From contig JANNPH010000002.1 of assembly GCA_031399965.1 (NCBI GenBank), positions 7,373-71,372 on the forward strand: a DNA stretch of 64,000 nt, read 5' to 3'. A model generated the notes under the pieces. The model was not told the origin of the DNA. It saw only the letters and a list, made by a program, of their open reading frames with translations, and made no database searches. Made by a program: the position numbers and the translations under genes. Positions 1 through 16,964 of this stretch are shown piece by piece. Position 1 is the stretch's first letter. Every line of letters starts with the position of its first letter. Origin of the DNA: Gloeobacteraceae cyanobacterium SOY_34_metabat_159. GTDB lineage: Bacteria > Cyanobacteriota > Cyanobacteriia > Gloeobacterales > Gloeobacteraceae.

Positions 1-224
1 TCGGCCAGCAAGCAACGATTACCGGCGAAGGCTTTACCGGAGAACTGGAAGGTGATGTCGTGCGGGTCGGGCTCTCGGTGTCCGCCCAGAGCGTGCTTGC
101 CAGTAGACCGGGAGCGGACAGCGACCGCAAAGTCGTGGAGGTGCGCGTCCGCCTCACCCCGGCCTCCTCGCGGCGGGCAGCGGGACTGACCAACCACCAG
201 GTCGAAGCGAGGATCCGGCTTTGA
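1..224 (+). CDS. devB: DevB-like membrane fusion protein (HlyD family), C-terminal fragment running off the window
   Basis: Frame 3 is open from the window edge and ends ...DRKVVEVRVRLTPASSRRAAGLTNHQVEARIRL*, a typical DevB-family C-terminus. Its stop (222-224) overlaps the devC-like start at 221. Confidence 0.75.
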   Translation, partial: GQQATITGEGFTGELEGDVVRVGLSVSAQSVLASRPGADSDRKVVEVRVRLTPASSRRAAGLTNHQVEARIRL

Positions 225-1384
225 AAGTAACCTGGGTCCGCTTCAAAACGCCGCTGGCCTGGCTGCAGGTGACCCGCGAGAAGACCCGCCTCGCGGTGGC
301 CCTGGCGGGTATCGCCTTCGCCAACATCCTGATGTTTATGCAGTTGGGCTTTCTGGGGGCGCTCTTCACGAGCATTACCATTCCCCACAAGAGCCTCCAG
401 GGCGACCTGGTGATCGTCCAGGCGCAGTACGAGACGCTCTTTTCAATTCGTAGCTTCAGCCGCGACCGCCTGCTTGCCGCCCTCGCCTGCCCGGAGGTCG
501 CCTCGGTCAATCCGCTTTCGGTTGCCCCGGCCATCTGGCGCAACCCGGTTACGCGCACCGGCCGCGCCATCCTGGTGTTCGGAGTAAGTCCCGAGCGCCC
601 GGCCTTTGCCGCAGCCGTGGCCGACCTCGAACCGCTCAAAATTCCTGACCGGGTGCTTTTCGACCGCGCTGCCCGGCCCGAGTACGGCCCGGTCGCCTCG
701 ACCTACGCAGCAGGAGAGCGGGTCGTTACCGAGCTGAGTGACCGCCAGGTCGAAGTGGAGGGACTATTTTCGGTCGGTCCTTCTTTTGCGGCCGACGGCA
801 ACATCATCACTTCCGAGACGACCTTCTTGCGGCTCTTCCCGGAGCGTTCTCCCAGCAAGATCGAGGTCGGGCTTTTGATGCTCAAGCCGGGGGCGGACCC
901 GATCCAGGTCCAGAGGGAACTGGCAGGACGGTTGCCCCCAGATGTCAAGGTGCTCACCCCGCAGAGCTTTGCCCAACTGGAGGCCGACTACTGGGCAGGC
1001 AGCACAGGCATCGGCTTCATCTTCGGGCTGGGGACGATCGTCGGTTTCGTGGTCGGGGCTGTGATCGTCTACCAGATCCTTTACGCCGATGTCGCCGACC
1101 ACCTGAGCGAGTACGCGACTTTGAAGGCAATGGGTTATACCGACCGCTACCTGTTCGGGGTCGTGGTCCAGGAGGGACTGATCCTGGCTGTGCTCGGGTT
1201 CGTGCCAGGGGTAGTGCTCTCGCTCGGGCTCTACGTTGTTGCCCGAGAGGCGACCCTCTTTCCGATTTCCATGCCTTTTGATCGCCTGGTGCTGGTGCTG
1301 GTGCTCACCGTCGGGATGTGTGCTGCTTCGGCCCTGATTGCTGCTCGCAAACTGCAGGCGGCTGACCCCGCCGATATTTTCTGA
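221..1384 (+). CDS. devC: DevC-like ABC exporter permease (FtsX-type)
   Basis: 387 aa. It has an N-terminal TM segment, a large periplasmic loop and a C-terminal FtsX-like 3-TM bundle (GIGFIFGLGTIVGFVVGAVIVYQIL...LKAMGY). It sits between devB-like and devA-like genes. Confidence 0.85.
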   Translation: MKVTWVRFKTPLAWLQVTREKTRLAVALAGIAFANILMFMQLGFLGALFTSITIPHKSLQGDLVIVQAQYETLFSIRSFSRDRLLAALACPEVASVNPLSVAPAIWRNPVTRTGRAILVFGVSPERPAFAAAVADLEPLKIPDRVLFDRAARPEYGPVASTYAAGERVVTELSDRQVEVEGLFSVGPSFAADGNIITSETTFLRLFPERSPSKIEVGLLMLKPGADPIQVQRELAGRLPPDVKVLTPQSFAQLEADYWAGSTGIGFIFGLGTIVGFVVGAVIVYQILYADVADHLSEYATLKAMGYTDRYLFGVVVQEGLILAVLGFVPGVVLSLGLYVVAREATLFPISMPFDRLVLVLVLTVGMCAASALIAARKLQAADPADIF

Positions 1385-1391
1385 TCTCGAA

Positions 1392-2081
1392 ATGTTAAGG
1401 AGCACTCTCGTGGAAGAACCGGTCGTGACCATCGCCGCGCTGAACCACCGCTTCGGCGACAAAAATCTTGAACGGCAGGTGCTCTTCGAGATCGATCTCA
1501 AAGTCCAGCCTGGGGAAATCGTTTTACTCACCGGCCCCTCCGGTTGCGGCAAGACGACCCTGCTCACCCTGGTGGGCGGACTGCGCTCGGTGCAGCAGGG
1601 CAGCCTCGTCGTCCTAGATCAGCAGTTGGGCGGAGCAAGTCCTCCAGAACTGGTAAACGTCCGCCGCCAGATTGGCTACATCTTCCAGTCCCACAACCTG
1701 CTGCAGTTTCTCACCGCCCGCCAGAATGTGCGGATGGCTCTCGAACTGGACCCCAGGGCAACTGACATCGAAAACCGGACACAGCAGATCCTCGAAGCGG
1801 TAGGCCTCGGGGAGCGTCTCGACGACTATCCCGAGAAACTTTCCGGCGGCCAGAAACAGCGAGTGGCCATCGCCCGCGCTCTTGCCCACCGCCCGGCCCT
1901 GGTGCTCGCCGACGAACCGACGGCTGCCCTCGACAGCAAGTCCGGTCGCGCGGTGGTCGAGCTGATGCAGCACCTGTCCCGTGTCCAGCGCACAGCAGTC
2001 TTGATGGTGACCCACGACAACCGCATCCTCGACATCGCCGACCGGGTGATCAAGATGGAGGACGGTTATATCTGCACCTGA
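1392..2081 (+). CDS. devA: DevA-like ABC transporter ATP-binding protein
   Basis: Walker A GPSGCGKTT, signature LSGGQKQRVAIARAL, Walker B LVLADEPT. The ATG at 1392 lies just after the devC stop; the ORF-track start at 1338 overlaps devC. Confidence 0.9.
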   Translation: MLRSTLVEEPVVTIAALNHRFGDKNLERQVLFEIDLKVQPGEIVLLTGPSGCGKTTLLTLVGGLRSVQQGSLVVLDQQLGGASPPELVNVRRQIGYIFQSHNLLQFLTARQNVRMALELDPRATDIENRTQQILEAVGLGERLDDYPEKLSGGQKQRVAIARALAHRPALVLADEPTAALDSKSGRAVVELMQHLSRVQRTAVLMVTHDNRILDIADRVIKMEDGYICT

Positions 2082-2178
2082 GCAGCAGGTATTTCCGGCT
2101 GCCGAGATTTTGTGAAATTTTAAAAATCCGGCTGTAAAGTATTTTTGCTGTGCCAACGCGTCTTTTGTCTGATCTCTC

Positions 2179-3897
2179 ATGAGCGCATTGCGCACCCGTG
2201 CCGGTTCCATTTTGCTCGCCTGCGCCCTGCTGGCTTGTCCCGTCTTCGCCCAGGACCCCGACACACTGCAAACCACGGTTCCCAACAATGTCTGGGAATT
2301 TGAAAATGTCTATCCCACTTCCTGGCACGCTCAGGTACTTGCCGACATCAGAAACCTCCTGAGCCCTGGAGAGAAAGATCTCTTCAAGGGCAATGCAGCT
2401 TTGTCGCGCTACCGGTTTGCTGAGGCCCTGGCTCAGGTGCTGGGCGAATCGGATCGACAACTGGAGACTGGAACTGCTACCGCCTGGACGCGCTCCCAGT
2501 TAGACGCGCTTACCCGACTGGCACAGGAGTTTGAAGCGGAACTGGCGGTATTGCGCACAAACACAACCCGGCTGGAGGGCCGGCTCGCACAAGTCGAGGA
2601 GAGCCGTTTCAGCTCGTTTTCCAAGCTCGACGGCTCGGTGGTGATGGCTATCACCGGCGGCGGCGGCTGTTCAGGCTGCACCATCCGTACGGGCGTGCCG
2701 GCCGAATCGTTCCCCGCTTCCCCCGCTTTCGGCGACGCCCTGGAGGCAGTGACTTTGCCCATCAACCAGGCCAACACAAGTTTCGTCGGTCGCACCACGC
2801 TCAACTTGCGGGCCTCTTTCACAGGCAACGATGAGTTGCGTCTGCGCATGCGGGGCGTCACCGGTCAGGACATTAGCGCCGCCCTGCCGGGTATCGCCAG
2901 CGGCATCGGCGTGCTCATCTTCGCCGGTGGTCCCCAGGGTACTTCCTTCGACGGCTCTACTATCGGGGTGAGCACGAGCGGTAATGCCAGCTTCAATATC
3001 GACGAAGTGCGCTACATCTTCAGCGTCAGCGAGTCGCTGCGCTTCTACGTCGGGCCGCGACTGGAGATTTCCGAATACCTCGACACCAATAGCTTCGCCA
3101 ACAGTGAAGAGATTGACGTCACAGGGGGCCTGTTCACCAATAGCCCGCTACTGACCTTCGTCTTCTTTGGCCCCGGTGTCGGTTTCGACTGGGATATCGG
3201 CGACGCGCTCTCACTGCGAGGCATCTACATTGCCAACAACGGTGGAGCCGCAACGGGCAATGTCCGCACCGATACTAACCAGTTCGGGGTGCCGGTGGGT
3301 GGCTTCGGGGCCGGTGGGCTCTTCGGCGGTGAGACAACGCTGGTCGGGGAGCTGGAGGTTCGCCCCGGCCCCGGTGCCGCCATCAAACTGCAGTATGGGC
3401 ATCTGGTGGACCAGGGCGGGATTCTGGGGTCGATTACCCTGCCCTCGCTGATTTCCAACAGCGTCACCGATGCCTGGGGTGTCAATTTCGAGTGGGCGGT
3501 GACCCCCTCTCTGGCTGTATTCGGCCGCTACAGCTTCGGCAACGTCAGCGTCAACGGGTTGCCCGACGCCCAGGCCCTGTTCTCGACTGTCACTCTGAAT
3601 ACCTGGCAGGCCGGCTTGACGCTGCCAGATTTTGGGGGTGAGGGCAATGCACTTGCCGTGACCGTGGCACAACCGTTGCGAGCCTTCACCGGCACTGTGG
3701 ACGGTCTACTCGGGCCGGGAGTGCGCACTTCGCTGGTGCCGAGCGGTGTCGAGACCGATGTTCAGGTCTTCTGGCGCTTCCAACTGAGCGACCGGCTCAG
3801 CATCACCCCGATGGTGCAGTTCATCGCCCAACCGGTCAATTCGCAAAGCAGCAACGGCTTAACCATCGGCGTATTGCGGGCAGTCTTCAGCTTCTAG
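2179..3897 (+). CDS. Cyanobacterial outer-membrane porin (N-terminal SLH domain plus OprB-type beta-barrel)
   Basis: Signal peptide ...CPVFAQ, SLH-like segment (WHAQVLADI...SRYRFAEALAQVL), coiled-coil linker, Gly/Ser/Thr-rich alternating barrel region, and C-terminal aromatic ...AVFSF. Confidence 0.85.
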   Translation: MSALRTRAGSILLACALLACPVFAQDPDTLQTTVPNNVWEFENVYPTSWHAQVLADIRNLLSPGEKDLFKGNAALSRYRFAEALAQVLGESDRQLETGTATAWTRSQLDALTRLAQEFEAELAVLRTNTTRLEGRLAQVEESRFSSFSKLDGSVVMAITGGGGCSGCTIRTGVPAESFPASPAFGDALEAVTLPINQANTSFVGRTTLNLRASFTGNDELRLRMRGVTGQDISAALPGIASGIGVLIFAGGPQGTSFDGSTIGVSTSGNASFNIDEVRYIFSVSESLRFYVGPRLEISEYLDTNSFANSEEIDVTGGLFTNSPLLTFVFFGPGVGFDWDIGDALSLRGIYIANNGGAATGNVRTDTNQFGVPVGGFGAGGLFGGETTLVGELEVRPGPGAAIKLQYGHLVDQGGILGSITLPSLISNSVTDAWGVNFEWAVTPSLAVFGRYSFGNVSVNGLPDAQALFSTVTLNTWQAGLTLPDFGGEGNALAVTVAQPLRAFTGTVDGLLGPGVRTSLVPSGVETDVQVFWRFQLSDRLSITPMVQFIAQPVNSQSSNGLTIGVLRAVFSF

Positions 3898-4245
3898 ACG
3901 AGCTGCGAGCAGGCCCTTCAGCGAGCCTGGAACAGCGTCGCCGGGTCGCCGCGCAATGGACAGAGGGTGCCGGACAGCTCCGGACAGGTCTTCTTACGAT
4001 GGAGCAGACAGCTTCGAGGGCTGTCCATGAGAGAACCCACCAGAACAGGCACAACAGCGAACCCGGCCAGGGGCGGACCCGAGAGCGAGAACAGCTTCCA
4101 GTCGCGCGCCGATTTTTTTACAACACCCCAGGCAGCCCGCCGGGTACATTTACGCTGCGTCGGCAATTGTTGGCGCTCCTGTCTGAGTCAACACCGATCT
4201 AGCAGGGGCAACCGTGAGAGACTGGTTTAATCCCCGAAGCATTCA

Positions 4246-5004
4246 TTGAGCCTGACAGTACTTTTAGCGGAGATTGCCGTGAATTCCAATCGCTCGGTAA
4301 AGCGCTCTGGTGAGCCAGAGGTTACCTCGGAGCGTCGTCAGGTCCAGAGGCCAGATCTGCGTGAATATCTTTTGCTCTTGAAATATGTCCTCAAGTACCT
4401 GACCGTGTTGAGAAAACAGCCTGAGCGCACGGAGTGTGTATTCTTACTACGCGCCTACGCCGACATCCTCATCCCCGGCCGTCACCTCGAATGCTTCCTG
4501 CAAGAGCACCCGCCCCTCCCCCAAGCGGGCGAGTTGGCGCAGTGCGCGCAGGGCAGTCTGGGTCACGCCTACGCCCGGCACCTGCGCTCCCTGGGGCAGC
4601 AGGACGGTACCGACATTGACTCGTACCGGTTGCAGGCAATTGCCATGGAAGAACCGCAGGGGGTAGCCCTGCGCCGTCGCTTCGAGGACGACCGCATCCG
4701 CCATCGCCAGGCAGTCCTGGCTAACCAGCATGACCTCTATCACCTCCTTACCGACTACGACACAAGCGATATTGGCGAGGTCAGCCTGCTTGCGTTTCAG
4801 GCTGCCCAGGTCGGCAACGGACTGAATATCCTGATTGGGTTGGGCGGCATCTTTCGCACCCTCGGTCGTGGGCAGTGGCGAGGGGTGTTCTCGGTCTGGT
4901 CGAGTTACCGCCGGGGCAAACAGACGAAGACACTGTTGACGACTGATTGGGAAAGCCGCTGGCACCAGCCGCTCGACCGGGTGCGCACAGAACTGGGTCT
5001 TTAG
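4246..5004 (+). CDS. Coq4-family protein
   Basis: Contains HDLYHLLTDYDTSDIGE, an exact HDxxH-x11-E Coq4 zinc-ligand motif. The start codon is uncertain (TTG at 4246; other in-frame starts lie downstream). Confidence 0.65.
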   Translation: MSLTVLLAEIAVNSNRSVKRSGEPEVTSERRQVQRPDLREYLLLLKYVLKYLTVLRKQPERTECVFLLRAYADILIPGRHLECFLQEHPPLPQAGELAQCAQGSLGHAYARHLRSLGQQDGTDIDSYRLQAIAMEEPQGVALRRRFEDDRIRHRQAVLANQHDLYHLLTDYDTSDIGEVSLLAFQAAQVGNGLNILIGLGGIFRTLGRGQWRGVFSVWSSYRRGKQTKTLLTTDWESRWHQPLDRVRTELGL

Positions 5005-5107
5005 TGTTGGGTGGCTTAAGACGGCACACCAAAGCGTAGATGGCGGTAATGCCGCCGGTGTAGCACTGATCACCGGGCTTACCCTGTCTGTGCATGGTGG
5101 GCTGAGA

Positions 5108-8100
5108 TTAAGTCAGCAGTCCATTTAATAGAGCATCCACCTGCGCATCGGACAACTGATCTAGATCCTCCAGCAGCTGCCCGGCATTCTCTTCAGTCAC
5201 CGCCACGCTTGCCCAGTGGTGCTCGGCTCGCGCTTTGAGGAGCGTGAGCTGGTGCAGGTTGTGCAGCACGGCCTCCGAATCGACCCCAAAGTCGATCAAG
5301 CAGGCCACTTCATTGACACCAATCGCCTGCAGCCGCTCGATCATCGGCCAGCAGGTGTCCGGCGTCCCAAAAAGTGCACTGGTCCGGAAGTAGCGCTCGA
5401 AGGCGTAGGTGAGTAAATCCGCTCGCTCGGTCGCACTCAGTTGCTCGGGGTCTTTTCGGGCCATCGACCGCCAGAGGTCTACAGAACTCTCTAGATATGC
5501 CGTGAATGGACCCCGCACCGCCTCGCGCACTGCCTCCAACTCCTCACCAACAAACGTGTGCAGCATCAAACTCACCTGCCCGGTTTTCGGGTCATGTCCG
5601 TGCGCTGAGCGCGCCATCCGGTAAGCAGCGATCTTCGGTGCCAGCTCCTCGACCGACTGAAACAATAGAGCCGTCAAAACATTCGCGCCAATCGCCCCGG
5701 CCTCAGAAAAGCGCTCCGCCCCACCGCTACAGGTAATCCAGATTTCGAGTTCCGGTTGCATCGGTAGGGGAAAGACTCTCACCTCCTGCAACTGCGCATT
5801 GCCGTCGGCAACGGAAATCGCTTCACCGCGCCAGAGCTTGCGTACGGTCTCAACCTGCTTGAAGAGCACATCCCGGCGATTGGCGTAGTGCTCGGGTGCA
5901 AGTACGAAGTCGTTCGCGTTCCAGCCCGTGGCGAAGGCGAGGTCCACCCGTCCGTGCGAGAGATTATCGACCACCGACCACTCCTCGACCACGCGGATCG
6001 GATTGTGTAGCGGCAGGACGACGCTCCCGGCCCGCAGCCGGACCCGATCAGTCGTCACCGCGAGCGCCGCACTCAACACGGACGGGTTTGGGTAGAGGCC
6101 GCCAAAAGCGTGAAAGTGGCGTTCAGGTGTCCAGACGGCGCTGAAGCCGTGATCGTCGGCAAACCTGGCCCCCTCCAGGAAAAGCCGGTACTTGCCCTGG
6201 TCAAATTCAGCCGCGTTGCTTGAAAAGTAGAAGAGGCTGAATTGCAGACCCTGGGACATCTCTCGGGGAGTGATTGCGGGCGCAGGACTTAGCACTTCTC
6301 GAACCGGACGGGATGGCGGCAGTACCGGTACGGCAGGCAAGGTCAACCCGGTCGCCATCTCTGCTGCCAGGTCGGCGACGCTGATGTCTTCTAGAAAGCG
6401 CGTCATCGGCAGGGCAATTTCAAGCTGTGCTTCGATCTGGCCTTTCAGTTCGACCGCCATCAACGAGTCGAGCCCCAGGTTGTTCAGGTACTGGTCAGGG
6501 TGCAACCGGGAGGCGGGAATCTTCAGCATCCGGGCGAGCTGTGCCTGCAGGTAGGACTGCAAAAATAGCGGGCGTTCGTCCGGAGGAAGCTCCAGTAGTG
6601 TTGAACGCCGCGGTGCTTCAATATCCACGACTAGTTCATCTAGAACACTGCTATCTACAACTTCCAGGCTGCCGCTCAAGAAACCGGCGCGGCAGGCGTG
6701 GCGCTGGATTTTGCCGCTCGAAGTCTTGGGGATGCTGCTGGTCTTGAGGAGCACGACCGCGTAGACTTCCAGTTCGTGCTCGCGGGCGACAGCCTGGCGA
6801 ATAGCGCTCACCACCGCCTCGAGATCCATTTCGCGGTGGTGGCGCACCAGTTCCTGCACGACGACCAGTCGCTCAGAGGGCTGCTCAATTGAAAAAGCGG
6901 CGTTGCTGCCCGCTAGAAGGGCCGGATGGCTCAGTTCCACCGTCCGTTCGATGTCTTGCGGGTAGTGGTTGCGGCCCCGAATGACGATCAGATCTTTCAG
7001 GCGTCCGGTGACGAAGAGTTCGCCCTCGTGCAAAAACCCAAGGTCGCCGGTGCGCAAGTATGGTTCAGCATCGCCAGTAAGGCGAGCTTCAAAGGTCTCA
7101 CGGCTCACCTCTGGCCGGTTGAAGTAACCTCGGGCAATATTTGGACCGGAGAGCCAGACCTCGCCAACCTGACCACCGGCACAGGGCAGGCATGTTACCG
7201 GATCGACGATCACCACCTGCTGCCCTGCCGGTGCACCGCCGCAACCCACCAGGGACCGGGAACCCTCGGCACCGGGCTGGGCGATGACCACCTGCCCGAG
7301 GGTGAGGGGAGCCGCCTCGACCCGGCAGGTTTTGAACTGGACTGTGCTGTTGCCGCCCGTGGCGAGTAGAGTCGCCTCGGCAAGCCCGTAGCAGGGGTAG
7401 AACGCCTCGGCCCGGAAGCCGCAGGGAGCAAAAGTGGCGGCAAAGCGTTCGAGGGTTTCGGCGCGGACGGGTTCAGCGCCATTGAAGGCGAGTCGCCAGC
7501 AACTGAGGTCGAGGGCTGCCAGTTGCTCCTGACTCACTTTGCGCTCGCACAGGTCGTAGGCAAAATTCGGCCCGCCGCTCGTGGTGATCCGGTAGCGCGA
7601 AATCGCCTCAAGCCAGCGCAGGGGCCGCTGCAAAAAAGCGGCAGGCGACATCAAGATGACCGGAGCCCCGACGTAGAGCGGTTCGAGGATGCCGCCGATA
7701 AGCCCCATGTCGTGGTAGGGCGGTAGCCAGAATAGGCCGCGACTGTCGTCGGGCGTGTCCGCGAAACAACGCTGAATTGCCGCGAGGTTAGAAAGAAGAT
7801 TGCCGTGGGTGAGCATCACTCCCTTGGGATCTGCTGTCGAACCCGAGGTGTACTGCAAGAAGGCGAGCGTCTCGCAGTCAAGTCGCGGCTCGTGCCACTC
7901 AGAAGCGGCCGACGTGGCAACCGTGTCGGTGGCCAGCCATTCAAGACCAGCAAGCTCGATGGGTTGGTGAACGCGCATGCCAAAAAGAGCTTCCGTGGTC
8001 AGGGCAATAGCAACCTCGGCGTCTCCCACGATGGCTTGCAATCGCTGGGCTGAACGGTTGCGCCGGGGCGGGTAGGCGGGTACCGCCACCAGACCCGCGT

Positions 8101-8341
8101 AGAGGCAACCGAAGAACGCTTCGAGGTAGTCGAGACCAGGTGGGTAAAGGAGCAAGGCCCGCTCACCTGCTGGTAGGCGTTCTTGTAGGCGGGCCGCCAG
8201 GGCGCGGGCGCGCCGGTCGAGTTGCCCGTAAGTGAGCGCTGATTCGGTCTCGCCGTCGGCTAAGAACGTGTAGGCGAGCCGGTCGGGTTGCTGGTGGGCG
8301 CGCATCTGCAGTAGAGCGACCAGGGTCGCGGTGTCCAGCAT
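5108..8341 (-). CDS. Tri-domain fatty acyl-AMP ligase (FAAL) - acyl carrier protein - luciferase-like (LLM, FMN-dependent) monooxygenase
   Basis: FAAL cores YTSGSTADPKGVMLTHGNL, GRLKDLIVIRGRNHYPQDIE and SSGKIQR. Carrier motif LGLDSLMAVELK. LLM region FSLFYFSS...GFSAVWTPERHFHAFGGLYPNPSV. The ATG at 8341 lies 5 nt after the PPTase stop. Confidence 0.9.
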   Translation of the reverse strand: MLDTATLVALLQMRAHQQPDRLAYTFLADGETESALTYGQLDRRARALAARLQERLPAGERALLLYPPGLDYLEAFFGCLYAGLVAVPAYPPRRNRSAQRLQAIVGDAEVAIALTTEALFGMRVHQPIELAGLEWLATDTVATSAASEWHEPRLDCETLAFLQYTSGSTADPKGVMLTHGNLLSNLAAIQRCFADTPDDSRGLFWLPPYHDMGLIGGILEPLYVGAPVILMSPAAFLQRPLRWLEAISRYRITTSGGPNFAYDLCERKVSQEQLAALDLSCWRLAFNGAEPVRAETLERFAATFAPCGFRAEAFYPCYGLAEATLLATGGNSTVQFKTCRVEAAPLTLGQVVIAQPGAEGSRSLVGCGGAPAGQQVVIVDPVTCLPCAGGQVGEVWLSGPNIARGYFNRPEVSRETFEARLTGDAEPYLRTGDLGFLHEGELFVTGRLKDLIVIRGRNHYPQDIERTVELSHPALLAGSNAAFSIEQPSERLVVVQELVRHHREMDLEAVVSAIRQAVAREHELEVYAVVLLKTSSIPKTSSGKIQRHACRAGFLSGSLEVVDSSVLDELVVDIEAPRRSTLLELPPDERPLFLQSYLQAQLARMLKIPASRLHPDQYLNNLGLDSLMAVELKGQIEAQLEIALPMTRFLEDISVADLAAEMATGLTLPAVPVLPPSRPVREVLSPAPAITPREMSQGLQFSLFYFSSNAAEFDQGKYRLFLEGARFADDHGFSAVWTPERHFHAFGGLYPNPSVLSAALAVTTDRVRLRAGSVVLPLHNPIRVVEEWSVVDNLSHGRVDLAFATGWNANDFVLAPEHYANRRDVLFKQVETVRKLWRGEAISVADGNAQLQEVRVFPLPMQPELEIWITCSGGAERFSEAGAIGANVLTALLFQSVEELAPKIAAYRMARSAHGHDPKTGQVSLMLHTFVGEELEAVREAVRGPFTAYLESSVDLWRSMARKDPEQLSATERADLLTYAFERYFRTSALFGTPDTCWPMIERLQAIGVNEVACLIDFGVDSEAVLHNLHQLTLLKARAEHHWASVAVTEENAGQLLEDLDQLSDAQVDALLNGLLT

Positions 8342-8346
8342 CGTTA

Positions 8347-9087
8347 CTACTCCGGGAAATTCCAGCACTGCAGTTGCCAGCCGCGACCAAAGACAGCGAG
8401 GGCTGCCATGTAGTCCGGATGCGGCTCCAAACTAGCAAGCGACCAGCGCGCCGCTTCTTCTGCGACCGGACGGGTATTGAGTAGAGCGGCCGGTTCCTCC
8501 GGCAAAACGGACACATCAAACTGGTCGAGTGGCAGGCTGAGCCCCTTGCCCGTCGCCTTCAAGTAAGCTTCTTTGCGGGTCCAGCAGGTATAGAAAGCCT
8601 GCTGCCGCCGCTCGGCCGGGAGCGACCGGAGGACGATATTTTCCCGCTCCGAGAAGCAGCGCTCAGCCAGGTCGTCGACTTCTTTAAGCGAAGCAATGCG
8701 CTCAATATCCACTCCGACCTCCCGCTCCAGGGCAACTGCGTAGAGCGCCAGTTCTCCTGAGTGTGAGACGTTGAAGTGTAGCCCGTTTCCACCAGCCAGG
8801 GCCGGCTTGCCCTGGGGACCGTAGCGAAATTGCAGGCAGTCAGGCGACACCTGCAAGTAGCGGCCGAGGACGGTTCTCAGTAGGCCCCGACCCACAACAA
8901 AGCGCCGCCTGTCGCGCTCAAAGTGAAAGCGCTCGGCCCGCTGCCGCTCGTCAGTCGAGAGCAGCATTTGTAGCTTTTGAGTGTCAGCAGAGGACCGATC
9001 GAGCCTGGCCACCCAGACGTGTACCGCGTCGGGCGATAGCTCCGGGATGCTCGCAGGCGGTGGCCTGAAACCTTCAACAGTCGCCAT
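8347..9087 (-). CDS. 4'-phosphopantetheinyl transferase (Sfp type)
   Basis: Motifs FNVSHSG, GVDIERI and WTRKEAYLKATGKG. Confidence 0.9.
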   Translation of the reverse strand: MATVEGFRPPPASIPELSPDAVHVWVARLDRSSADTQKLQMLLSTDERQRAERFHFERDRRRFVVGRGLLRTVLGRYLQVSPDCLQFRYGPQGKPALAGGNGLHFNVSHSGELALYAVALEREVGVDIERIASLKEVDDLAERCFSERENIVLRSLPAERRQQAFYTCWTRKEAYLKATGKGLSLPLDQFDVSVLPEEPAALLNTRPVAEEAARWSLASLEPHPDYMAALAVFGRGWQLQCWNFPE

Positions 9088-9889
9088 CGTGCACTAGCCC
9101 GAGGAGGTCCGCCGAGACTGCTTCGAGCAGCCCATCGCGGTCGGTGTGGATAAAAAAGTGGCCGCCCGCAAACAGGCGCACGCTCAAGGGCTGAGACGTC
9201 TGCAGTTGCCAGGCTGCCAGGTCGGCCCGGCTCACCCCGGTGTCTTCATCGCCCCCAAAAGCCGAAATTGGGCAATCGAGTGGTGCGCGTTCTGAGTAGA
9301 CGTAGGTCTCAGCAATCGAAAAATCGCCGCGCAACACCGGCAGCAACACCTGCATCAATTCTTGATGCTGCAAGATCGGCTCGGGTGTACCTCCCAGGCG
9401 ACGCAGGGCATCGATAAAAGGCGCGTCCGGTAACTGGTGGATTGGTGCCTCGCGCCGAGGAAGTTGGGGTGCGCCGCGACCGGAGACCAGCAGCGCAACG
9501 GGAGTAGGCAGTTGTCGAGCGCGCAGGGCGCAAGCCACCTCGAAGGCGACAATCGCTCCGAGGCTATGGCCAAAAAAGGCAAAAGGCTTATCCAGGTGCT
9601 CGGCCAGTTCGCTCAGCAACCCCTGCACGAGGCCTGCCAGATCACGGATCAGTACTTCTTTGAAGCGACCCTCCCGGCCAGGGGGCTGCACCGCGCAGAC
9701 CTCGACGGTGGGCGGGAGCGCTTGCGGCCAGGTCCGAAAAATCGAAGCTCCACCGCCCGCGTACGGAAAGCAAATCAGGCGCAACCGGGCCTGCGGATTG
9801 GGCCTCGGGTAGCTCACCCACGCGCTTGGGCTGGAGCCCCAGTGCCCAACTCCCGTAGGGGAGCACGTATCTTGATTCACCACGAACAT
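9074..9889 (-). CDS. Type II thioesterase (alpha/beta hydrolase)
   Basis: LICFPYAGGGASIFRTW, nucleophile elbow GHSLGAIVAFE, and C-terminal GGHFF. The start is set to the Met at 9889 because the longer ORF-track version overlaps the MbtH gene. Confidence 0.85.
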   Translation of the reverse strand: MFVVNQDTCSPTGVGHWGSSPSAWVSYPRPNPQARLRLICFPYAGGGASIFRTWPQALPPTVEVCAVQPPGREGRFKEVLIRDLAGLVQGLLSELAEHLDKPFAFFGHSLGAIVAFEVACALRARQLPTPVALLVSGRGAPQLPRREAPIHQLPDAPFIDALRRLGGTPEPILQHQELMQVLLPVLRGDFSIAETYVYSERAPLDCPISAFGGDEDTGVSRADLAAWQLQTSQPLSVRLFAGGHFFIHTDRDGLLEAVSADLLGLVHDGDC

Positions 9890-9947
9890 CCCTTGTTCAT
9901 GAGGGCCACCCGTGAAGACAGTTTCCGGCGAGTACCCGTCCAGCCCC

Positions 9948-10181
9948 TCATTCGGGCGATCGGGCAGCTTCCATCCGCTGCCGCAGGCTGAGAGGCCGCA
10001 TGTCTGTCCAGACTTCTTTAATGTAGGCCAGGCACTCGGCCTTGGTGCCGCTCTTGCCACCATCCTGCCAGCCGAGCGCGTTCTCCCGCTCAGCAGGCCA
10101 GATCGAGTACTGCTCCTCGTGGTTCAAGACGACTTTGTAAAGGGTTTGATCTTCGCTATCCGCTGTACTCATTGCTTGCAT
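9948..10181 (-). CDS. MbtH-like protein
   Basis: 77 aa with [24 protein letters not shown]...[20 protein letters not shown], the MbtH signature tryptophans. Confidence 0.9.
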
Positions 10182-10489
10182 CCGGGGTCAGTTGCCATTT
10201 AGCCCGTAGATCATAGGGCTCCCCGTCGCCCGCGTATAGTAATGTCCGCTACAGGCAAGAAACTGGGTATCGGCCTCCGGGTTGCCTCAAGGCCGCCGCC
10301 TCATGGGTAAATTCACGCTGACCCCTGAGCGCCGGACGCTCCGTGCCCTTGCGGTCGGGGAGGAGGCGCGACTAGCTTCGCTCATTGCATTTGCGCACCT
10401 GAAGTCTGAAATCATGTCAGACTCACTCCACAACAGGTTTCGATCGGCAGAGAGTGAGGCAGGGCGATTGTGATGGAGTCGAAGTCTTG

Positions 10490-11284
10490 ATGGCAGTTCA
10501 ACCGGTAGTCACCCCAAAGCCGATGCTCAAATGGGCGGGCGGCAAGCGTTGGCTGGTGCCGAGGCTGACAGCGGTCTGGAATCAGCACGCCCACCGGCGA
10601 CTCGTCGAACCTTTCGTGGGCGGCATGGCGGTCTCCCTCAGCCTGCAGCCGCAAGATGCCCTGCTGAGTGACAACAACCCCCACCTCATCAACTTTTACA
10701 CCTGGGTCCAGCGGGGGCTGACTGTCGAGATTGACCCCAGAAACGATTCGCAGTACTACTACGCCTGCCGGGCCAGGTTTAACGCACTTATCCTGGCGGG
10801 CGGACACCAGACGGCCGAGGCGGCTCAGCTTTTCTACTACCTGAACCGGACTACCTACAACGGATTGACGCGCTTCAACAGCAAAGGCACCTTCAATGCC
10901 CCTTTCGGACAATACAGGACAATCCACTACGCGACTGATTTTCTTGACTATGTCCCGGTGCTTGCGAACTGGACTTTTCAACAGGCGGATTTCGCTGAGT
11001 TGCAACTGGAGGCCGGTGATTTTATCTATGCCGACCCACCCTACGACGTCGAATTCACGATGTATAGCGCGGGGGGATTTGCCTGGCACGACCAGGAGCG
11101 GCTCGTCGAGTGGTTGGCCCGACATCCCGGTCCGGTAGTGCTCTCCAACCAGGCAACAGCGCGGATCCTTGCACTTTACGAAGCGGCAGGATTTACCATC
11201 GAGCTGCTCGACGCACCCCGCCGCATCGCCTGTAATGGCGACCGCACCCCAGCAAGAGAAGTGCTGGCCAGCAGAAACATCTGA
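10490..11284 (+). CDS. dam: DNA adenine methyltransferase (Dam family)
   Basis: N-terminal KWAGGKRWL, FVGGMAV (SAM-binding) and catalytic DPPY (IYADPPYD). Confidence 0.85.
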   Translation: MAVQPVVTPKPMLKWAGGKRWLVPRLTAVWNQHAHRRLVEPFVGGMAVSLSLQPQDALLSDNNPHLINFYTWVQRGLTVEIDPRNDSQYYYACRARFNALILAGGHQTAEAAQLFYYLNRTTYNGLTRFNSKGTFNAPFGQYRTIHYATDFLDYVPVLANWTFQQADFAELQLEAGDFIYADPPYDVEFTMYSAGGFAWHDQERLVEWLARHPGPVVLSNQATARILALYEAAGFTIELLDAPRRIACNGDRTPAREVLASRNI

Positions 11285-11310
11285 CGAGCGAACCGCGCTA
11301 AGATCGCTGC

Positions 11311-11901
11311 ATGCTCAAGGGTGTCAGTCTCTATCTAGTCGGCATGATGGGGTCGGGTAAATCGACGGTCGGTCGCCTGGTGGCCGCCAGACTCGGTTAC
11401 CACTTTCTCGACCTCGACGAACTGATCGAGAAGATCAGCGGCCTTTCAATCCCCCAGATCTTCGCCGAGCGCGGCGAAGTCGCCTTTCGCGAACTCGAAA
11501 CCCAGGTGCTGATGCAGGTGGCACCCTATACACGGGTCGTCGTCTCCACCGGCGGCGGTGTCGTGCTCACCCCCCGCAACTGGGGTCACCTGCGCCACGG
11601 CGTCGTGGTCTGGCTCGACGCACCGGTCGAAACTCTGGCAAGGCGAGCCCTCCAAAACCCCGGTACCCGCCCGCTGCTTACCGTTGCTGACCCCCAGGCA
11701 AAGCTTGCCCAGTTGCTCGAAGAACGCAAACCGCTCTATACCCAGGCTGATATCAGAGTCGAAGCGCAAGGCCCACCGGCTACAGTCGCAGAATCGGTAC
11801 TCATCCGTCTGGCAGAGCGTCTGGCGGAGGACCAGGAGGACCAGGAGGACGCGCAGTTGAACAATTGTCCACCATCCCTCCAGACTGAAGAGACCAGCTA
11901 G
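11311..11901 (+). CDS. aroK: Shikimate kinase
   Basis: LVGMMGSGKSTVGR P-loop and STGGGVV motif. Confidence 0.9.
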   Translation: MLKGVSLYLVGMMGSGKSTVGRLVAARLGYHFLDLDELIEKISGLSIPQIFAERGEVAFRELETQVLMQVAPYTRVVVSTGGGVVLTPRNWGHLRHGVVVWLDAPVETLARRALQNPGTRPLLTVADPQAKLAQLLEERKPLYTQADIRVEAQGPPATVAESVLIRLAERLAEDQEDQEDAQLNNCPPSLQTEETS

Positions 11902-11913
11902 CCGAGCAATTTT

Positions 11914-12198
11914 ATGAGCCCGATTGCACCCCAACCCCTTGAGCGCTTGATTGCCGTCTGCGAGCGGCAGTCTGAGACCGCTGAGCGCCAGCACCGCAGT
12001 ATCGAGGTGCTCGCGTCCGGTTTTATCGAGCAGGCGCGGGCGATTACCGAGATGGCACACACGACGCGCACGGTGGTGGAGACAGTTCGTCGGGCGGCCG
12101 AGGCGAGCGAATCGGCGGCCCTGCTCACCCGGCGCAATACCGAGGCCATCCGGGCGCTTATCGAGCTATTGCAGCGGACGCACCGTGACGATGGGTGA
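11914..12198 (+). CDS. Small helical hypothetical protein
   Basis: 94-aa ORF with host-like codon usage. Its stop overlaps the next gene's ATG (ATGGGTGA), suggesting translational coupling. I recognise no family. Confidence 0.45.
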   Translation: MSPIAPQPLERLIAVCERQSETAERQHRSIEVLASGFIEQARAITEMAHTTRTVVETVRRAAEASESAALLTRRNTEAIRALIELLQRTHRDDG

Positions 12199-13447
12199 AC
12201 CTTTCGATGTATTGATCCTCTCCAACGGTCCGGGGGAAGTCAGTACCTGGGTGCGCCCCGTCGCCCGCGAACTGAGCGAACGCTGGCCGGGAGCACGCAT
12301 CTCGCTGATTCTCGCTCCCGATGTCAACAGTTCCGGCAAAGAGGCCGAGATGGCGGCGGGCTTTGTCGGGATCGCTCGCGTGCAACCGGCAAAAGACTAT
12401 CTCAAATTTTTGTTGACCGGGCGCACCGCTCAAAACTGGGACTGGGCCAGGCGCGGTATCGTGCTCTTTTTGGGAGGAGATCAGGGGTTTTCCGCTTTTA
12501 TTGCCCGCCGCATGGGTTACCCGATCGTCGCCTACGCCGAGTGGGAAGCGCGCTGGCCCCGCTGGTTCAATCGCTTCGGCCTGCGCGAAGAATCGGTGCG
12601 CGGGCGCTCTACTAAAGAGCGCTTCAGTGGCCAGTTTCAGGTGGTCGGCGACTTGATGATCGACGCGGTGCAGCCTGACCCCGCCGCGCGAGAACGCCTG
12701 CGCACGCTGCTTGGAGCAGGTCAGGCCGGAGTCGTGGCGCTGCTGCCCGGCTCCAAACCACTCAAGCTTTCCCTCGGCATTCCACTTTTTCTGGGGGCTA
12801 TCGACCGACTGGCACGCGAGCGCCCCGGCCTGTCCTTTTTCATCCCGGTCGCTCCTGGCTTGAGCGGCGACGACCTGGCCCGCTACGCACGGCCCGACAA
12901 CCCCGACCTCGCTCTAGTCGGTGGCGAGAGTGCCGTTTTGCACTCGGAGCACGGGGCTGATTATCTGGTGTGCCCGAGCGGGACGCGGGTGCGGCTGTTT
13001 TACGAGCGTCCCGCCTACGACTTGCTGGCGCTGAGCGACCTGGCCCTCACGACCGTGGGGGCCAACACGGCCGAACTCGGTATCCTCGGCGTGCCGATGG
13101 TGGTCGTCATTCCCACCAACCGCTGGGATGTGATGCGCGCCTGGGACGGGGTGCCGGGACTTTTGAGCGCTCTACCCGTGGTCGGGGGTGCAGTCGCCTC
13201 TTTTATCAATCGACGCATCGTGGGGCGGCTGGGCCTATTGGCCTGGCCCAATATCCGCGCCGGCCGCATGGTCGTGCCGGAGTTGTGCCGCCACCTCACA
13301 GCGAGCGACCTGGTGCCGGTGCTCAGCGAGTGGCTCGACGACCCCGAGCGGCGCACCCGCACTTCAATAGAACTAAAAGAGGTAATGGGAAAAACCGGGG
13401 CGGTCAAAGCCTTCGTGGATCTGGCCGATGCAGTTCTACGCTGCTGA
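12191..13447 (+). CDS. Lipid-A-disaccharide synthase-related protein (LpxB-like glycosyltransferase)
   Basis: MGEPFDVLILSNGPGEVSTWVRPV... matches the N-terminus of the cyanobacterial LpxB-related family. The gene lies next to lpxD. The ORF-track start at 11951 is an Arg-rich extension overlapping the previous ORF. Confidence 0.7.
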   Translation: MGEPFDVLILSNGPGEVSTWVRPVARELSERWPGARISLILAPDVNSSGKEAEMAAGFVGIARVQPAKDYLKFLLTGRTAQNWDWARRGIVLFLGGDQGFSAFIARRMGYPIVAYAEWEARWPRWFNRFGLREESVRGRSTKERFSGQFQVVGDLMIDAVQPDPAARERLRTLLGAGQAGVVALLPGSKPLKLSLGIPLFLGAIDRLARERPGLSFFIPVAPGLSGDDLARYARPDNPDLALVGGESAVLHSEHGADYLVCPSGTRVRLFYERPAYDLLALSDLALTTVGANTAELGILGVPMVVVIPTNRWDVMRAWDGVPGLLSALPVVGGAVASFINRRIVGRLGLLAWPNIRAGRMVVPELCRHLTASDLVPVLSEWLDDPERRTRTSIELKEVMGKTGAVKAFVDLADAVLRC

Positions 13448-13495
13448 CGACGATGCTGTAGAATCTGCCTAATAGTCTTCAGGGCAATCGTCTCG

Positions 13496-14521
13496 ATGAA
13501 GCTTGGGCAACTGGCAGAGCAGTTGAGTTGTGCGGTGGAAGGCAACTCCGATGTCGAGATTCGCGGCCTGGCCTCTATCCAACAGGCCGGTCCCGGCGAA
13601 TTGAGCTTTATCGAGGGCGATAAGCACATCCGGCTCATCAAAGGGACCCGCGCCGAAGCGCTCATCCTCCACCCCAAGATTCTCGACCCCGGCCTGCCCT
13701 GTCTGCGCACTGAAAACCCCCGCCTTGTCTTTGCTCGTGCTCTCGCCCTTTTCTATCAGCCCCGTCGCCCGCGTCCGGGCATTCACCCGACCGCCGTCAT
13801 CGGTCAAAACGTGCGCATCGACAGTACCGCCCACCTCGGTCCGCACGTAGTCGTCGGCGACGACACCGTCATCGAAGCAGGTGTGATTATTCACCCCAAC
13901 TGCACCCTCTACGAAGGGGTGCGCGTCGGAGCCCACACCGTCATCCATGCCAACTGCGCCATCCACGAACGCACCGAGATTGGTGCTGAGTGCATCTTGC
14001 AGTCGGGCGTGGTGCTCGGCGGCGAGGGCTTCGGCTTTGTGCCGATGGCCGACGGCTCCTGGCACAAGATGCCGCAGTCGGGATATGTGGTGGTTGGCGA
14101 CGGTGTCGAAGTCGGCGCCAATACAACCATCGACCGGCCGGCGGTCGGCTCTACTGAGATCGGCTGCGGCACCAAAATTGACAACCTGGTGATGGTCGGC
14201 CACGGCTGCTCGACCGGCGAACACTGTCTGCTGGTCTCCCAGGTCGGCCTCGCAGGCGGTGCCCGACTCGGCCGAAACGTCATGCTGGCCGGTCAGGTCG
14301 GCGTGGCCGACCACGTCACCATCGGCGACCGGGCCGTCGCCACTGCCCAATCCGGCATCCCGAGCGATATCGAGGCCGGCACCCTCGTCTCCGGCTACCC
14401 GGCGATGCCCCACTCCATCTTTCTGCGGGTAGCTGCCATCTACCGGAGGCTACCTGAGCTTTATGCCGCAGTCCGCGACTTGCAGCGCAAGGTCAGCGCC
14501 CTTCAGCACCGCGCCGATTGA
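13496..14521 (+). CDS. lpxD: UDP-3-O-acylglucosamine N-acyltransferase
   Basis: LpxD N-terminal domain (LASIQQAGPGELSFIEGDKH) followed by long left-handed beta-helix hexapeptide repeats. Confidence 0.9.
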   Translation: MKLGQLAEQLSCAVEGNSDVEIRGLASIQQAGPGELSFIEGDKHIRLIKGTRAEALILHPKILDPGLPCLRTENPRLVFARALALFYQPRRPRPGIHPTAVIGQNVRIDSTAHLGPHVVVGDDTVIEAGVIIHPNCTLYEGVRVGAHTVIHANCAIHERTEIGAECILQSGVVLGGEGFGFVPMADGSWHKMPQSGYVVVGDGVEVGANTTIDRPAVGSTEIGCGTKIDNLVMVGHGCSTGEHCLLVSQVGLAGGARLGRNVMLAGQVGVADHVTIGDRAVATAQSGIPSDIEAGTLVSGYPAMPHSIFLRVAAIYRRLPELYAAVRDLQRKVSALQHRAD

Positions 14522-14564
14522 GCGGTTGTGCTAACTTCGTGGCTGTCTCGCGATTTTTAGGCGC

Positions 14565-14723
14565 ATGATCGAGCAAAAAGACGACGCAAAAGTGCCCCTC
14601 TTCGGCTTTACACCCTTCGCCGAACTGTTGAATGGTCGCCTGGCGATGATCGGGTTCGTCTTGACTTTGATTATCGAGGCGAGCACCCGCCAGAGCCTTC
14701 TGCAGTGGCTGGGTTTCCAGTAG
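14565..14723 (+). CDS. hli: High-light-inducible protein (HLIP, CAB/ELIP/HLIP family)
   Basis: 52 aa, below the ORF-track cutoff: MIEQKDDAKVPLFGFTPFAELLNGRLAMIGFVLTLIIE..., containing the chlorophyll-binding motif ExxNGRxAMxGF. Confidence 0.85.
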   Translation: MIEQKDDAKVPLFGFTPFAELLNGRLAMIGFVLTLIIEASTRQSLLQWLGFQ

Positions 14724-15295
14724 CTCCAAGGCCCCAACTCTTACTCGCGTCAGCCTCGCCCCGGCGGCGAGAGCTACTGCTGCAGTTGGGTGTCGAATTT
14801 CGGGTGGTGCCGAGTGCCTATCCGGAGCAGATGGATAATGCAAGCGACCCTGGCGAGCTGGTCGTTCAGAATAGTCTCGGCAAAGCCCGCGACGTGCAGG
14901 CCCGCGAACCGGGCCTGATTCTCGGTGCTGACACGATTGTCGTCCTGGATGGAACTATCTACGGCAAACCGCGGGACACAGGCGAGGCGGTGCACATGCT
15001 CACCAAGCTGCAAGGCCGCTGGCACACTGTCCACACTGGTCAGGCCCTAGTGGACGCTCACCGGGAGTGCGCCCGGCATCGCTCGACGCGTGTCCGGTTG
15101 CGGACAATGAGCACAGATCAAATCCGCGCCTACGTATCGAGCGGCGAACCGCTCGACAAAGCGGGAGCCTACGCCATCCAGGGGCTTGGTGCGGCTCTGG
15201 TCGAGGCAATCGACGGCTGTTATACGACCGTGGTCGGCCTATCGTTGCCGATGCTAGTCGATATGCTCTTTGAATTTGAGCAATTTGTCTTCTAA
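14705..15295 (+). CDS. maf: Maf-like nucleoside triphosphate pyrophosphatase
   Basis: LLLASASPRRRELL, GADTIV and KAGAYAIQG motifs. The GTG start at 14705 overlaps the hli stop, so the start is uncertain. Confidence 0.85.
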   Translation: MAGFPVAPRPQLLLASASPRRRELLLQLGVEFRVVPSAYPEQMDNASDPGELVVQNSLGKARDVQAREPGLILGADTIVVLDGTIYGKPRDTGEAVHMLTKLQGRWHTVHTGQALVDAHRECARHRSTRVRLRTMSTDQIRAYVSSGEPLDKAGAYAIQGLGAALVEAIDGCYTTVVGLSLPMLVDMLFEFEQFVF

Positions 15296-15405
15296 GCAGA
15301 TGTACGCTTCCCCGCAGCGGCAAGTACCTGCATTCCCCCAGTTCTGGGCTTGACAGGGGATAGCATGGAGTCAGTCTCTTTCGAGCCGTCGGCTTCGATT
15401 CCCCC

Positions 15406-15768
15406 ATGTTGCACTTCATGCGTATTGCCGTTCTGACTTTCAGCATCGCGGTGCTCACCACGGTCCAGCCGGCCCGTGCCGACGTCTGGCAGGGGAGCGG
15501 TCAGGTTGTCAGTGGTCCCGGTGCGGGTGCGACGGTGCCTTTGACGGTCGATTATGACGGTCAAAATTTAAAAACGCTTTCCGGTCCTACGCTCGAAGGT
15601 TCGCAAGTCCGCATCGAGCAGCAGGGCGACTCGCTGGAACTGACCCTTTTTCGCAGCAATAACCAGATAGTCAAATACCGGCTCAGGCGTGTAAGTACGA
15701 GCAACGACAATCGCCGCAGCCAGGTCGGTCTCGGGACCGGTGCGCCCGGCCGTCTGGCCAGCCGCTAG
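15406..15768 (+). CDS. Secreted hypothetical protein
   Basis: Signal peptide (IAVLTFSIAVLTTVQPARA). I recognise no family. Confidence 0.5.
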   Translation: MLHFMRIAVLTFSIAVLTTVQPARADVWQGSGQVVSGPGAGATVPLTVDYDGQNLKTLSGPTLEGSQVRIEQQGDSLELTLFRSNNQIVKYRLRRVSTSNDNRRSQVGLGTGAPGRLASR

Positions 15769-15801
15769 GATAGCTTTGAGGTGTCGGGCGGCCGGTAAAT
15801 T

Positions 15802-16479
15802 TTGAGACTCGGAATCTTTACAGATGTACACGGCGACCTGCATGCGCTCCACAAGGTGCTGAACGCTCTGGAACAGGCGCGGGCAGACGCCCTCGTCTGC
15901 CTGGGTGACCTGGTGGTCCACGGCCAGCGTCCCAACGAAGTGGTCGATCTCGTCCGTGCCCTTGCAATCCCGACCGTCGGCGGCAACCACGACCACGGGG
16001 CCATCCACTACGGCCGCGATCCGGGCTTACAGTTTTTCAATCCCAAGTCCGAACTGCATACCGCCCTCACCCAACCCCGCCTCAGCCCGGAAAATCGCGC
16101 TTTTTTGAGTACCCTGCCCGAAACACTGACTCCCCATGCGCAGGTGCATTGCGTCCACGCCTCTTACCGCGACCGCTACGCATTGCTCTATTCATCGGTG
16201 GTAGTGGATCAGGTACTGGAAGACGCAATCGCTCCAGTGACGCTATCGGGCCATACCCACCGCACCCGCATCCACGTGCTCGGCGCGGGTGGCGAAGCGT
16301 CGGAAGTTGACCCCTGGGCAGCAGGCGGGACCAGTTTTACTTGCGAACTTGACTGGGACCAGGAGAAATATATCCTCAATTGCGGCAACACTTCTCAACT
16401 GCTTTACGACCGGCTACCGTCAGTCTGCGGTCTACTCGACACCGGCAACCAGACGATCACCTGGAAGCGCGTATATTAA
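15802..16479 (+). CDS. Metallophosphoesterase (YfcE-like)
   Basis: Motifs GIFTDVHGD, CLGDLV, GGNHD and SGHTH. TTG start. Confidence 0.8.
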   Translation: MRLGIFTDVHGDLHALHKVLNALEQARADALVCLGDLVVHGQRPNEVVDLVRALAIPTVGGNHDHGAIHYGRDPGLQFFNPKSELHTALTQPRLSPENRAFLSTLPETLTPHAQVHCVHASYRDRYALLYSSVVVDQVLEDAIAPVTLSGHTHRTRIHVLGAGGEASEVDPWAAGGTSFTCELDWDQEKYILNCGNTSQLLYDRLPSVCGLLDTGNQTITWKRVY

Positions 16480-16955: not shown

Positions 16956-16964
16956 AAGGCAATC

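Follow-up and report, generated by a model that had tools for sequence, protein, structure and literature searches.

Positions 5,108 to 10,181 of a 64,000-nucleotide stretch of Gloeobacteraceae cyanobacterium SOY_34_metabat_159 (contig JANNPH010000002.1; the whole stretch is called the window below) carry on the minus strand four intact genes, encoding an MbtH-like protein, a type II thioesterase (TEII), an Sfp-type 4'-phosphopantetheinyl transferase (PPTase) and a three-domain fusion made up of fatty acyl-AMP ligase (FAAL), acyl carrier protein (ACP) and luciferase-like monooxygenase (LLM) domains. We consider it about an even chance that this operon is a detached lipo-initiation cassette, one that would make a 2-hydroxyacyl-S-ACP starter for a nonribosomal peptide synthetase (NRPS) encoded elsewhere. 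In the putative mechanism the PPTase would convert the carrier domain of the fusion to its holo form, the FAAL would adenylate a free fatty acid and load its own ACP without forming an acyl-CoA, and the cis-fused, FMN-dependent LLM would hydroxylate the alpha carbon of the tethered thioester to give the 2-hydroxyacyl-S-ACP. An acidic two-helix tail would then dock the fusion on a starter condensation domain through that domain's basic N-terminal helix, and the partner NRPS, encoded outside the window at another locus or else beyond the devBCA genes at a distance of more than 5 kb, would N-acylate its first amino acid with the hydroxy-fatty acid. The type II thioesterase would clear mis-primed or stalled carriers, while the MbtH-like protein would chaperone the adenylation domains of the absent NRPS.

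Profile searches placed the three domains along the fusion, with domain residues numbered here on a 1086-aa version that starts at GTG 8368; the protein proper has 1077 aa from ATG 8341. The adenylating domain matched Pfam AMP-binding PF00501 with 231.7 bits (residues 21-416) and continued into the DIP2-like C-terminal subdomain PF23024 (49 bits, residues 459-570), followed by the PP-binding domain PF00550 (53.6 bits, residues 606-669), and the lysine of PKTSSGKIQR is among the conserved adenylation motifs present in the sequence. FAALs carry in their N-terminal domain a specific insertion of about 20 residues that is absent from other ANL enzymes, and the region between motifs A5 and A6 is its place. 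The fusion has an insertion there: aligned by MAFFT, four adenylation domains of NRPSs from loci L001, L002 and L004 show a gap of 22-25 residues at this point, and it is these domains, not acyl-CoA synthetases, that formed the comparison. Its best-matching solved structures were likewise FAALs, namely 7R7E/F/G at 661 bits and the L. pneumophila FAAL 3KXW at 496 bits, with FadD32 (~369 bits), FadD23 (343 bits), FadD28 and the E. coli FAAL 3PBK (291 bits) next, as against only 80 bits for the acyl-CoA synthetase FadD13. The best NCBIfam ANL matches were all FAAL families, at 405-448 bits versus 167 bits for PRK06187, all of these scores being under the full-length cutoffs; PRK07768, a model named CoA ligase, reached 311 bits on the same domain, also under its full-length cutoff. 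By these sequence measures the adenylating domain is a true FAAL, which upholds an earlier note on this DNA that had named it so, and not an ordinary acyl-CoA synthetase devoid of the insertion. We infer that the acyl-adenylate is passed to the carrier and that no acyl-CoA is made.

The C-terminal catalytic domain matched the Bac_luciferase Pfam model (145.5 bits, residues 709-1019) and, far more strongly, TIGR04020, the MupA/Atu3671 family of LLMs, with 505 bits against a cutoff of 244.45 and coverage of positions 1-340 of the 341 in the model. Its closest solved structure is the OX domain of PuwE, 6KET, both by sequence (399.6 bits, E 1.4e-118) and by comparison of an AlphaFold2 (AF2) model, with a predicted local distance difference test score (pLDDT) of 77.3, where 6KET was the top Foldseek match (E 6.4e-35, template modeling scores 0.81/0.88) and the LLM and the PuwE domain were 51% identical in the structure alignment. 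The modeled domain has a luciferase-like TIM-barrel fold, and the LLM class given to it in the earlier note is borne out by the family score as well as by the match to 6KET. MupA was found in vitro to alpha-hydroxylate a thioester bound to an ACP (PMC10952193), the Ox domain of PuwE has been credited with the 2-hydroxyl group in the puwainaphycins' 3-amino-2-hydroxy acyl unit (PMC4219810), and LLM domains have been annotated in the starter regions of microginin and ralsolamycin (PMC9594780, PMC4989320). By analogy with MupA and PuwE, the LLM of the window would alpha-hydroxylate the carrier-tethered acyl thioester using reduced flavin. The operon has no flavin reductase gene.

Fusions of this kind proved to be widespread, and the description of the architecture as uncommon did not survive the database searches. 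A word-indexed search at the 90% identity level gave over 90 clusters in which AMP-binding, PP-binding and LLM domains occur together; their hosts include Cyanobacteria, Chloroflexota, Acidobacteriota and Actinobacteria. When representatives of clusters at 50% identity were searched exhaustively, at least 14 among the top 150 matched residues 5-1040 colinearly, at lengths of 996-3686 aa. Several database sources already name such proteins "natural product biosynthesis luciferase-like monooxygenase". The window fusion is identical to one database protein, P0001 (1077 aa), and its closest homologues are 54-59% identical over the full length. In every one of the closest relatives with a readable downstream region, at six loci in all (L001, L002/L003, L004/L005, L006, L007 and L009), the LLM is followed at a distance of 0-130 bp by the start of a condensation domain, and the NRPS is co-directional with the loading gene in all six. 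Loading proteins of cyanobacterial NRPS clusters (for example P0004 from a Leptolyngbyaceae metagenome-assembled genome (MAG), P0005 from Microcoleus sp., P0015 and P0029) have the same three domains in the same order at 54-59% identity, share the acidic C-terminal tail of the window protein and have TEII or MbtH genes alongside. They differ from it in having NRPS genes of the condensation-adenylation-peptidyl carrier protein (C-A-PCP) type within 130 bp, where the window protein has a convergent Coq4-like gene instead, and it is the window that joins MbtH, TEII, PPTase and the loading gene in one co-directional operon with overlaps.

Sequence comparison of the extreme C terminus provided a further tie to NRPS partners. 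The tail of the window protein keeps the motif QLLxxLDQLSDxxVDxLLxxLL, a form of which, approximately QLLxxLDQ(L/M)S(D/E)xEVD(S/A)LLxxLL, ends essentially all of the ~30 closest homologues and is present in every split, NRPS-coupled homologue, that is, wherever a separate NRPS gene lies downstream. In the separate NRPSs that follow tail-bearing homologues, the condensation domain is preceded at the N terminus by a basic helix, LSxxEKRALLAQLLxxK, which is ~30 residues long. Tail and basic helix are both missing at L007 and L009, where a single polypeptide comprises LLM and condensation domain, and P0062 (L091) and P0076 (L094), which stand in non-NRPS contexts, end right after the LLM. P0035, P0048 and P0067 are also tail-less, the comparison of gene neighborhoods having covered other members than these three. 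The AF2 model predicts the two short helices of the tail with moderate confidence. This distribution suggests that the acidic tail and the basic NRPS helix may form a charge-complementary docking pair; docking domains in general are reviewed in PMC9113145. A TubC_N docking domain was also considered for the NRPSs adjoining tail-bearing homologues and was rejected, none carrying it; it was seen only in the differently ordered L090 system.

The three small genes point to the same kind of pathway. MbtH-like proteins are partners of NRPS adenylation domains; they are not known to partner FAALs and have no known role without an NRPS adenylation domain. The one encoded here scores 71.6 bits against PF03621 (cutoff 27), with its SIWP, GW and WTDMRP motifs intact, and is 76% identical to the product of the MbtH gene adjoining the NRPS-coupled FAAL-ACP-LLM of L004. 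The thioesterase scores 159.7 bits against PF00975 and has the GHSLG, GGDED and GGH motifs of a Ser-Asp-His triad; its best solved structures are RifR (3FLA, 174 bits), RedJ, SrfAD and YbtT, and it is 53% identical to the TEII gene products of the NRPS-coupled loci L002 and L006, as compared with 37% to the cis-acting thioesterase of P0052, so that by sequence it is a thioesterase of the type II editing type. The PPTase combines ACPS PF01648 (74.6 bits) with AASDHPPT_N PF22624 (52.5 bits), the two-lobed Sfp type, and because its 239.5 bits against the HetI equivalog model fall under the cutoff of 370, we describe it as HetI-like and do not file it as HetI. No database relative exceeds 59% identity to it, and none of the nearest bears the name Gloeobacter. 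We note that a 408-aa protein, P0301, fuses an Sfp-type PPTase to a thioesterase domain and thereby mirrors the overlapping thioesterase-PPTase gene pair of the window.

The coordinates of the operon and of the domains of the fusion are collected in the table. The content, strand and tight packing of the four genes and the start and length of the fusion, all as given in the earlier note, were confirmed by the profile searches and by reading of the DNA, and the signature and catalytic motifs of all four proteins are, where readable, unbroken. The MbtH stop and the likely thioesterase start are ~58 nt apart, the PPTase gene, from its ATG at 9087, shares 14 nt with the end of the thioesterase gene, and 5 nt lie between the PPTase stop and the fusion-gene ATG, which has GGAG 8 nt upstream; the four genes are translationally coupled. 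The mechanical thioesterase ORF (open reading frame) reaches 10063, from where it would overlap MbtH by 116 nt, and its thioesterase domain begins only at residue 95; for both reasons the true start is probably the ATG at 9889, not 10063. A scan of the operon for promoter consensus sequences gave no match, and terminator-like matches were fewer than the shuffled expectation.

Table. Minus-strand genes of the operon and domains of the fusion protein, in window positions
Feature	Position	Strand	Basis
MbtH-like protein, 77 aa	9948-10181	-	PF03621
Stand-alone type II thioesterase, ~271 aa from probable ATG 9889	9074-9889	-	PF00975
Sfp/HetI-type 4'-phosphopantetheinyl transferase, 246 aa	8347-9087	-	PF01648 + PF22624
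FAAL-ACP-LLM fusion, 1077 aa, ATG 8341 to stop TAA 5108-5110	5108-8341	-	profile searches
Fatty acyl-AMP ligase: AMP-binding core and DIP2-like C-terminal subdomain	6659-8308	-	PF00501, PF23024
FAAL-type insertion, ~22-25 residues, roughly T333-G357 (1077-aa numbering)	7271-7345	-	MAFFT alignment
Acyl carrier domain, LGLDSL phosphopantetheine attachment motif	6362-6553	-	PF00550
Luciferase-like FMN-dependent monooxygenase, MupA/Atu3671 family	5237-6241	-	TIGR04020
Acidic C-terminal tail AGQLLEDLDQLSDAQVDALLNGLLT, docking-like, two short predicted helices	5111-5185	-	homologue comparison and AF2 model

The proposed cassette shares parts of its logic with three known systems. Like the OX domain of PuwE (6KET) with PuwC and PuwD (PMC4219810), it would work on a fatty acyl chain tethered to a carrier, at the beginning of a lipopeptide pathway in a cyanobacterium. 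The puwainaphycin FAAL and ACP, however, are separate proteins where those of the window are fused, and the puwainaphycin chain is first extended by a polyketide synthase (PKS) and aminated, its Ox domain lying inside a PKS-aminotransferase-Ox-NRPS protein, whereas the oxygenase of the window directly follows the loading ACP without a ketosynthase, acyltransferase or aminotransferase. MupA serves the mupirocin trans-AT PKS as its alpha-hydroxylase and belongs to the same NCBIfam family, TIGR04020, as the window LLM, but is free-standing and recruited in trans to a bimodule of KS0 and ACP, while the window domain is fused in cis to FAAL-ACP. The FAAL-ACP lipo-initiation modules of the PvdL type (N-terminus NF004282) and of daptomycin style use a FAAL and a carrier to give a fatty acyl group to a starter condensation domain, as proposed here, and residues 14-673 of the fusion match positions 9-655 of the NRPS model PRK05691 with 600 bits. 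Those modules differ from the window in having no oxygenase between the carrier and the condensation domain and in being, usually, covalently part of the NRPS.

Distant members of the family work without an NRPS, as in L093, L094, L010 and L011. In L093 (positions 10001-14017; cyanobacterial MAG GCA_039181635.1), a single 1338-aa FAAL-LLM-ACP-thioesterase protein stands among housekeeping genes and is followed by a FAD-dependent oxidoreductase; it appears to be a self-contained fatty-acid-modifying enzyme, and its domain order is permuted. L094 (GCA_028285035.1, positions 1-19000) has a tail-less FAAL-ACP-LLM together with several sulfotransferases, a glycosyltransferase and two B12/radical-SAM (DUF4070) genes, as well as a FAAL-ACP-aminotransferase protein and a MacB/FtsX exporter, a gene content that looks like a sulfated-lipid pathway. 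In L010 (9968-14362, Spongiactinospora), L011 (9980-14398, Nocardia) and L097 (~358-4000), the tridomain continues into an alpha-oxoamine synthase (PF00155) on the same polypeptide, the surrounding 10 kb contain no NRPS, and an aldehyde dehydrogenase gene is a conserved neighbor in L010 and L011. Should the LLM alpha-hydroxylate, one protein of this four-domain kind would be enough to produce 4-hydroxy-3-keto sphingoid-like amines.

Domain scans of the 64-kb window, which reaches only 5.1 kb downstream of the fusion, found no condensation, ketosynthase or NRPS adenylation domain, in agreement with the earlier note, which had seen none nearby. The largest ORF of the window is the fusion itself, none being longer than 1086 aa, the other large ORFs are housekeeping or unrelated genes by Pfam scans, and when the window was searched by tblastn with an entire C-A-PCP module taken from one of the related loci, the FAAL domain was the sole match. 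NRPS pseudogene fragments were also sought in the window by tblastn, and none was found. Because there is no NRPS in the window, a partner of the cassette must be encoded elsewhere; the NRPS acting in trans is a hypothetical one. Several points weigh against a detached cassette. The 64 kb hold no NRPS or PKS domain, and cyanobacterial NRPS clusters are usually contiguous, so that a partner in trans would be unusual. The gene directly downstream of the fusion is the convergent Coq4-like gene, which is unrelated; a search of the window for a matching N-terminal docking-helix motif found none; and the docking role of the tail is drawn from a correlation over ~8 contexts. A rough neighbor-joining tree, in which mixed domain orders disturb the alignment, placed the window protein on a long, deep basal branch and not nested in the tail-bearing clades. 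The earlier note's account of function is for the most part correct. It had also called the operon a self-contained set; in origin, though, the operon is probably not self-contained, because its closest relatives are the front ends of NRPS clusters, its thioesterase is of the editing type, and both the MbtH gene and the docking-like tail have been kept.

Two fates had been suggested for the acyl product, use by an assembly line at a distance and thioesterase-mediated release, and both were retained as the readings to be weighed, the former evenly poised and the latter possible but doubtful. Under the latter, the operon would be an NRPS-less remnant or a repurposed stand-alone pathway whose ancestral NRPS genes were lost or never transferred; the FAAL would load the ACP, the LLM would alpha-hydroxylate the chain, and the thioesterase would hydrolyze it, freeing a 2-hydroxy fatty acid for envelope lipids or DevBCA-type export. 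This is consistent with 64 kb without an assembly-line domain, with four intact genes that make up the minimal set for such a circuit, and with the location of devC, devA and a porin gene 1-3 kb downstream. The L093 protein, moreover, shows thioesterase release to be a real design in another cyanobacterium, and the distant members in L094, L010 and L011 dispense with an NRPS. The thioesterase of the window, however, is nearest to the editing enzymes of NRPS clusters (53%, versus 37% to the cis-releasing P0052 domain), the MbtH-like protein would be left with no known role, and the docking-like tail has been kept, whereas P0062 and P0076, the NRPS-independent homologues with a seen context, are without one. 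The devBCA and porin genes, for their part, lie on the other strand and count among the common housekeeping genes of cyanobacteria. A bolder form of the idea, in which the operon is a self-sufficient 2-hydroxy fatty acid synthase of a thylakoid-less, Gloeobacter-like host and the former front end has turned into a primary-lipid modifier, we regard as unlikely; the editing thioesterase would then serve as a dedicated release enzyme, MbtH and the tail would have new partners or none, and the products might reach the envelope through the neighboring DevBCA-type exporter.

It is decidedly unlikely, in our estimation, that the operon is instead the edge of a conventional contiguous cluster, with the NRPS just past the left end of the window, beyond devBCA and the porin gene. 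The window takes in only 5.1 kb on the downstream side of the fusion gene, 26.5 kb of the 90,555-nt source contig lie outside its 64,000 nt, and ABC/MacB-type exporters occur inside the related clusters L087 and L094; yet the co-directional NRPS lies within 130 bp in six of six related NRPS-coupled loci, and five opposite-strand genes (Coq4-like, porin, devA, devC and devB) would have to intervene here. The remaining alternative concerns the chemistry and not the partner: the LLM could carry out some other flavin-dependent oxygenation of the tethered chain, such as a Baeyer-Villiger-type insertion, over-oxidation to the 2-keto acid or oxidative chain shortening. The luciferase-like fold allows diverse reactions, the Foldseek neighbors include type II Baeyer-Villiger monooxygenases and aldehyde-oxidizing luciferases, and no characterized FAAL-ACP-LLM tridomain was found in the literature searched. 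These enzymes of different chemistry are only remote fold neighbors, however, at ~17-20% identity, whereas the close relatives MupA and PuwE Ox are both tied to alpha-hydroxylation of carrier-bound thioesters (PMC10952193, PMC4219810), and we consider a different reaction very unlikely.

The host is a Gloeobacter-like cyanobacterium, as judged from its phosphoglycerate kinase (PGK), which is 88% identical to that of Gloeobacter kilaueensis, and from a DUF455-DUF3084-PGK-rSAM block that is syntenic with the same species. The fusion, by comparison, has no relative above ~59% identity in protein databases, and species-representative genomes and JGI metagenomes yielded relatives at 60% identity or less; since both the PPTase and the fusion are at most 59% identical to their relatives, against 88% for PGK, the operon appears accessory to the Gloeobacter core. 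Its GC content at third codon positions (GC3) is 0.68-0.71, and the codon usage of the fusion correlates with that of housekeeping genes at r=0.89. Any transfer of the operon was therefore not recent, its composition and codon usage being host-like.

Downstream of the fusion and on the opposite strand, positions 1-3897 carry the 3' end of a devB-like gene, devC (TIGR01185, 492 bits), devA (TIGR02982, 346 bits) and an 'iron uptake porin' gene of the SomB type (NF033921), with the Coq4-like gene between these and the fusion. A functional link between this DevBCA-type exporter and porin and the convergent FAAL operon, for example in export of a lipidic product, is possible. Upstream of the operon lie genes for a Dam methylase, shikimate kinase, lpxB, lpxD, maf, a B12/radical-SAM protein and pgk; the first of these, a Dam-family adenine methyltransferase gene (10454-11284, plus strand), is divergent from the operon. 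The B12-binding radical-SAM/DUF4070 gene adjoins pgk both in the window (16965-19822) and in G. kilaueensis (L177, 10001-12945) and so forms a conserved pair. A link of the operon to this gene (16965-18569), prompted by what P0040 and L094 show in fusions and neighbors, was considered and dropped, because the gene belongs to the PGK-rSAM block syntenic with G. kilaueensis, independently of the operon. Elsewhere in the window, all on the minus strand, a gene for a phage-tail-like sheath protein (PF04984, PF17482) adjoins one for a Pvc16_N-domain protein (34580-37159), and the two look like part of a contractile injection system or tailocin-like element; a Uma2-family putative endonuclease is encoded at 28538-29179; and a 795-aa protein encoded at 39345-41732 combines G8 with CEMIP beta-helix domains, which is unusual in a cyanobacterium.

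What distinguishes this locus is its detachment from any assembly line, the architecture itself being a recognized and widespread lipo-initiation design, and its compact, PPTase-equipped form would make it a convenient system in which to show the action of the oxygenase on a tethered fatty acid. Neither outcome for the partner would overturn current understanding. If the partner NRPS is remote, the operon would belong to a split lipopeptide pathway whose parts are connected through a docking tail, which would be useful for genome-mining rules and for lipo-initiation engineering; if there is no partner, it would be a case of assembly-line parts that have decayed into, or been reused as, a small fatty-acid hydroxylation pathway.

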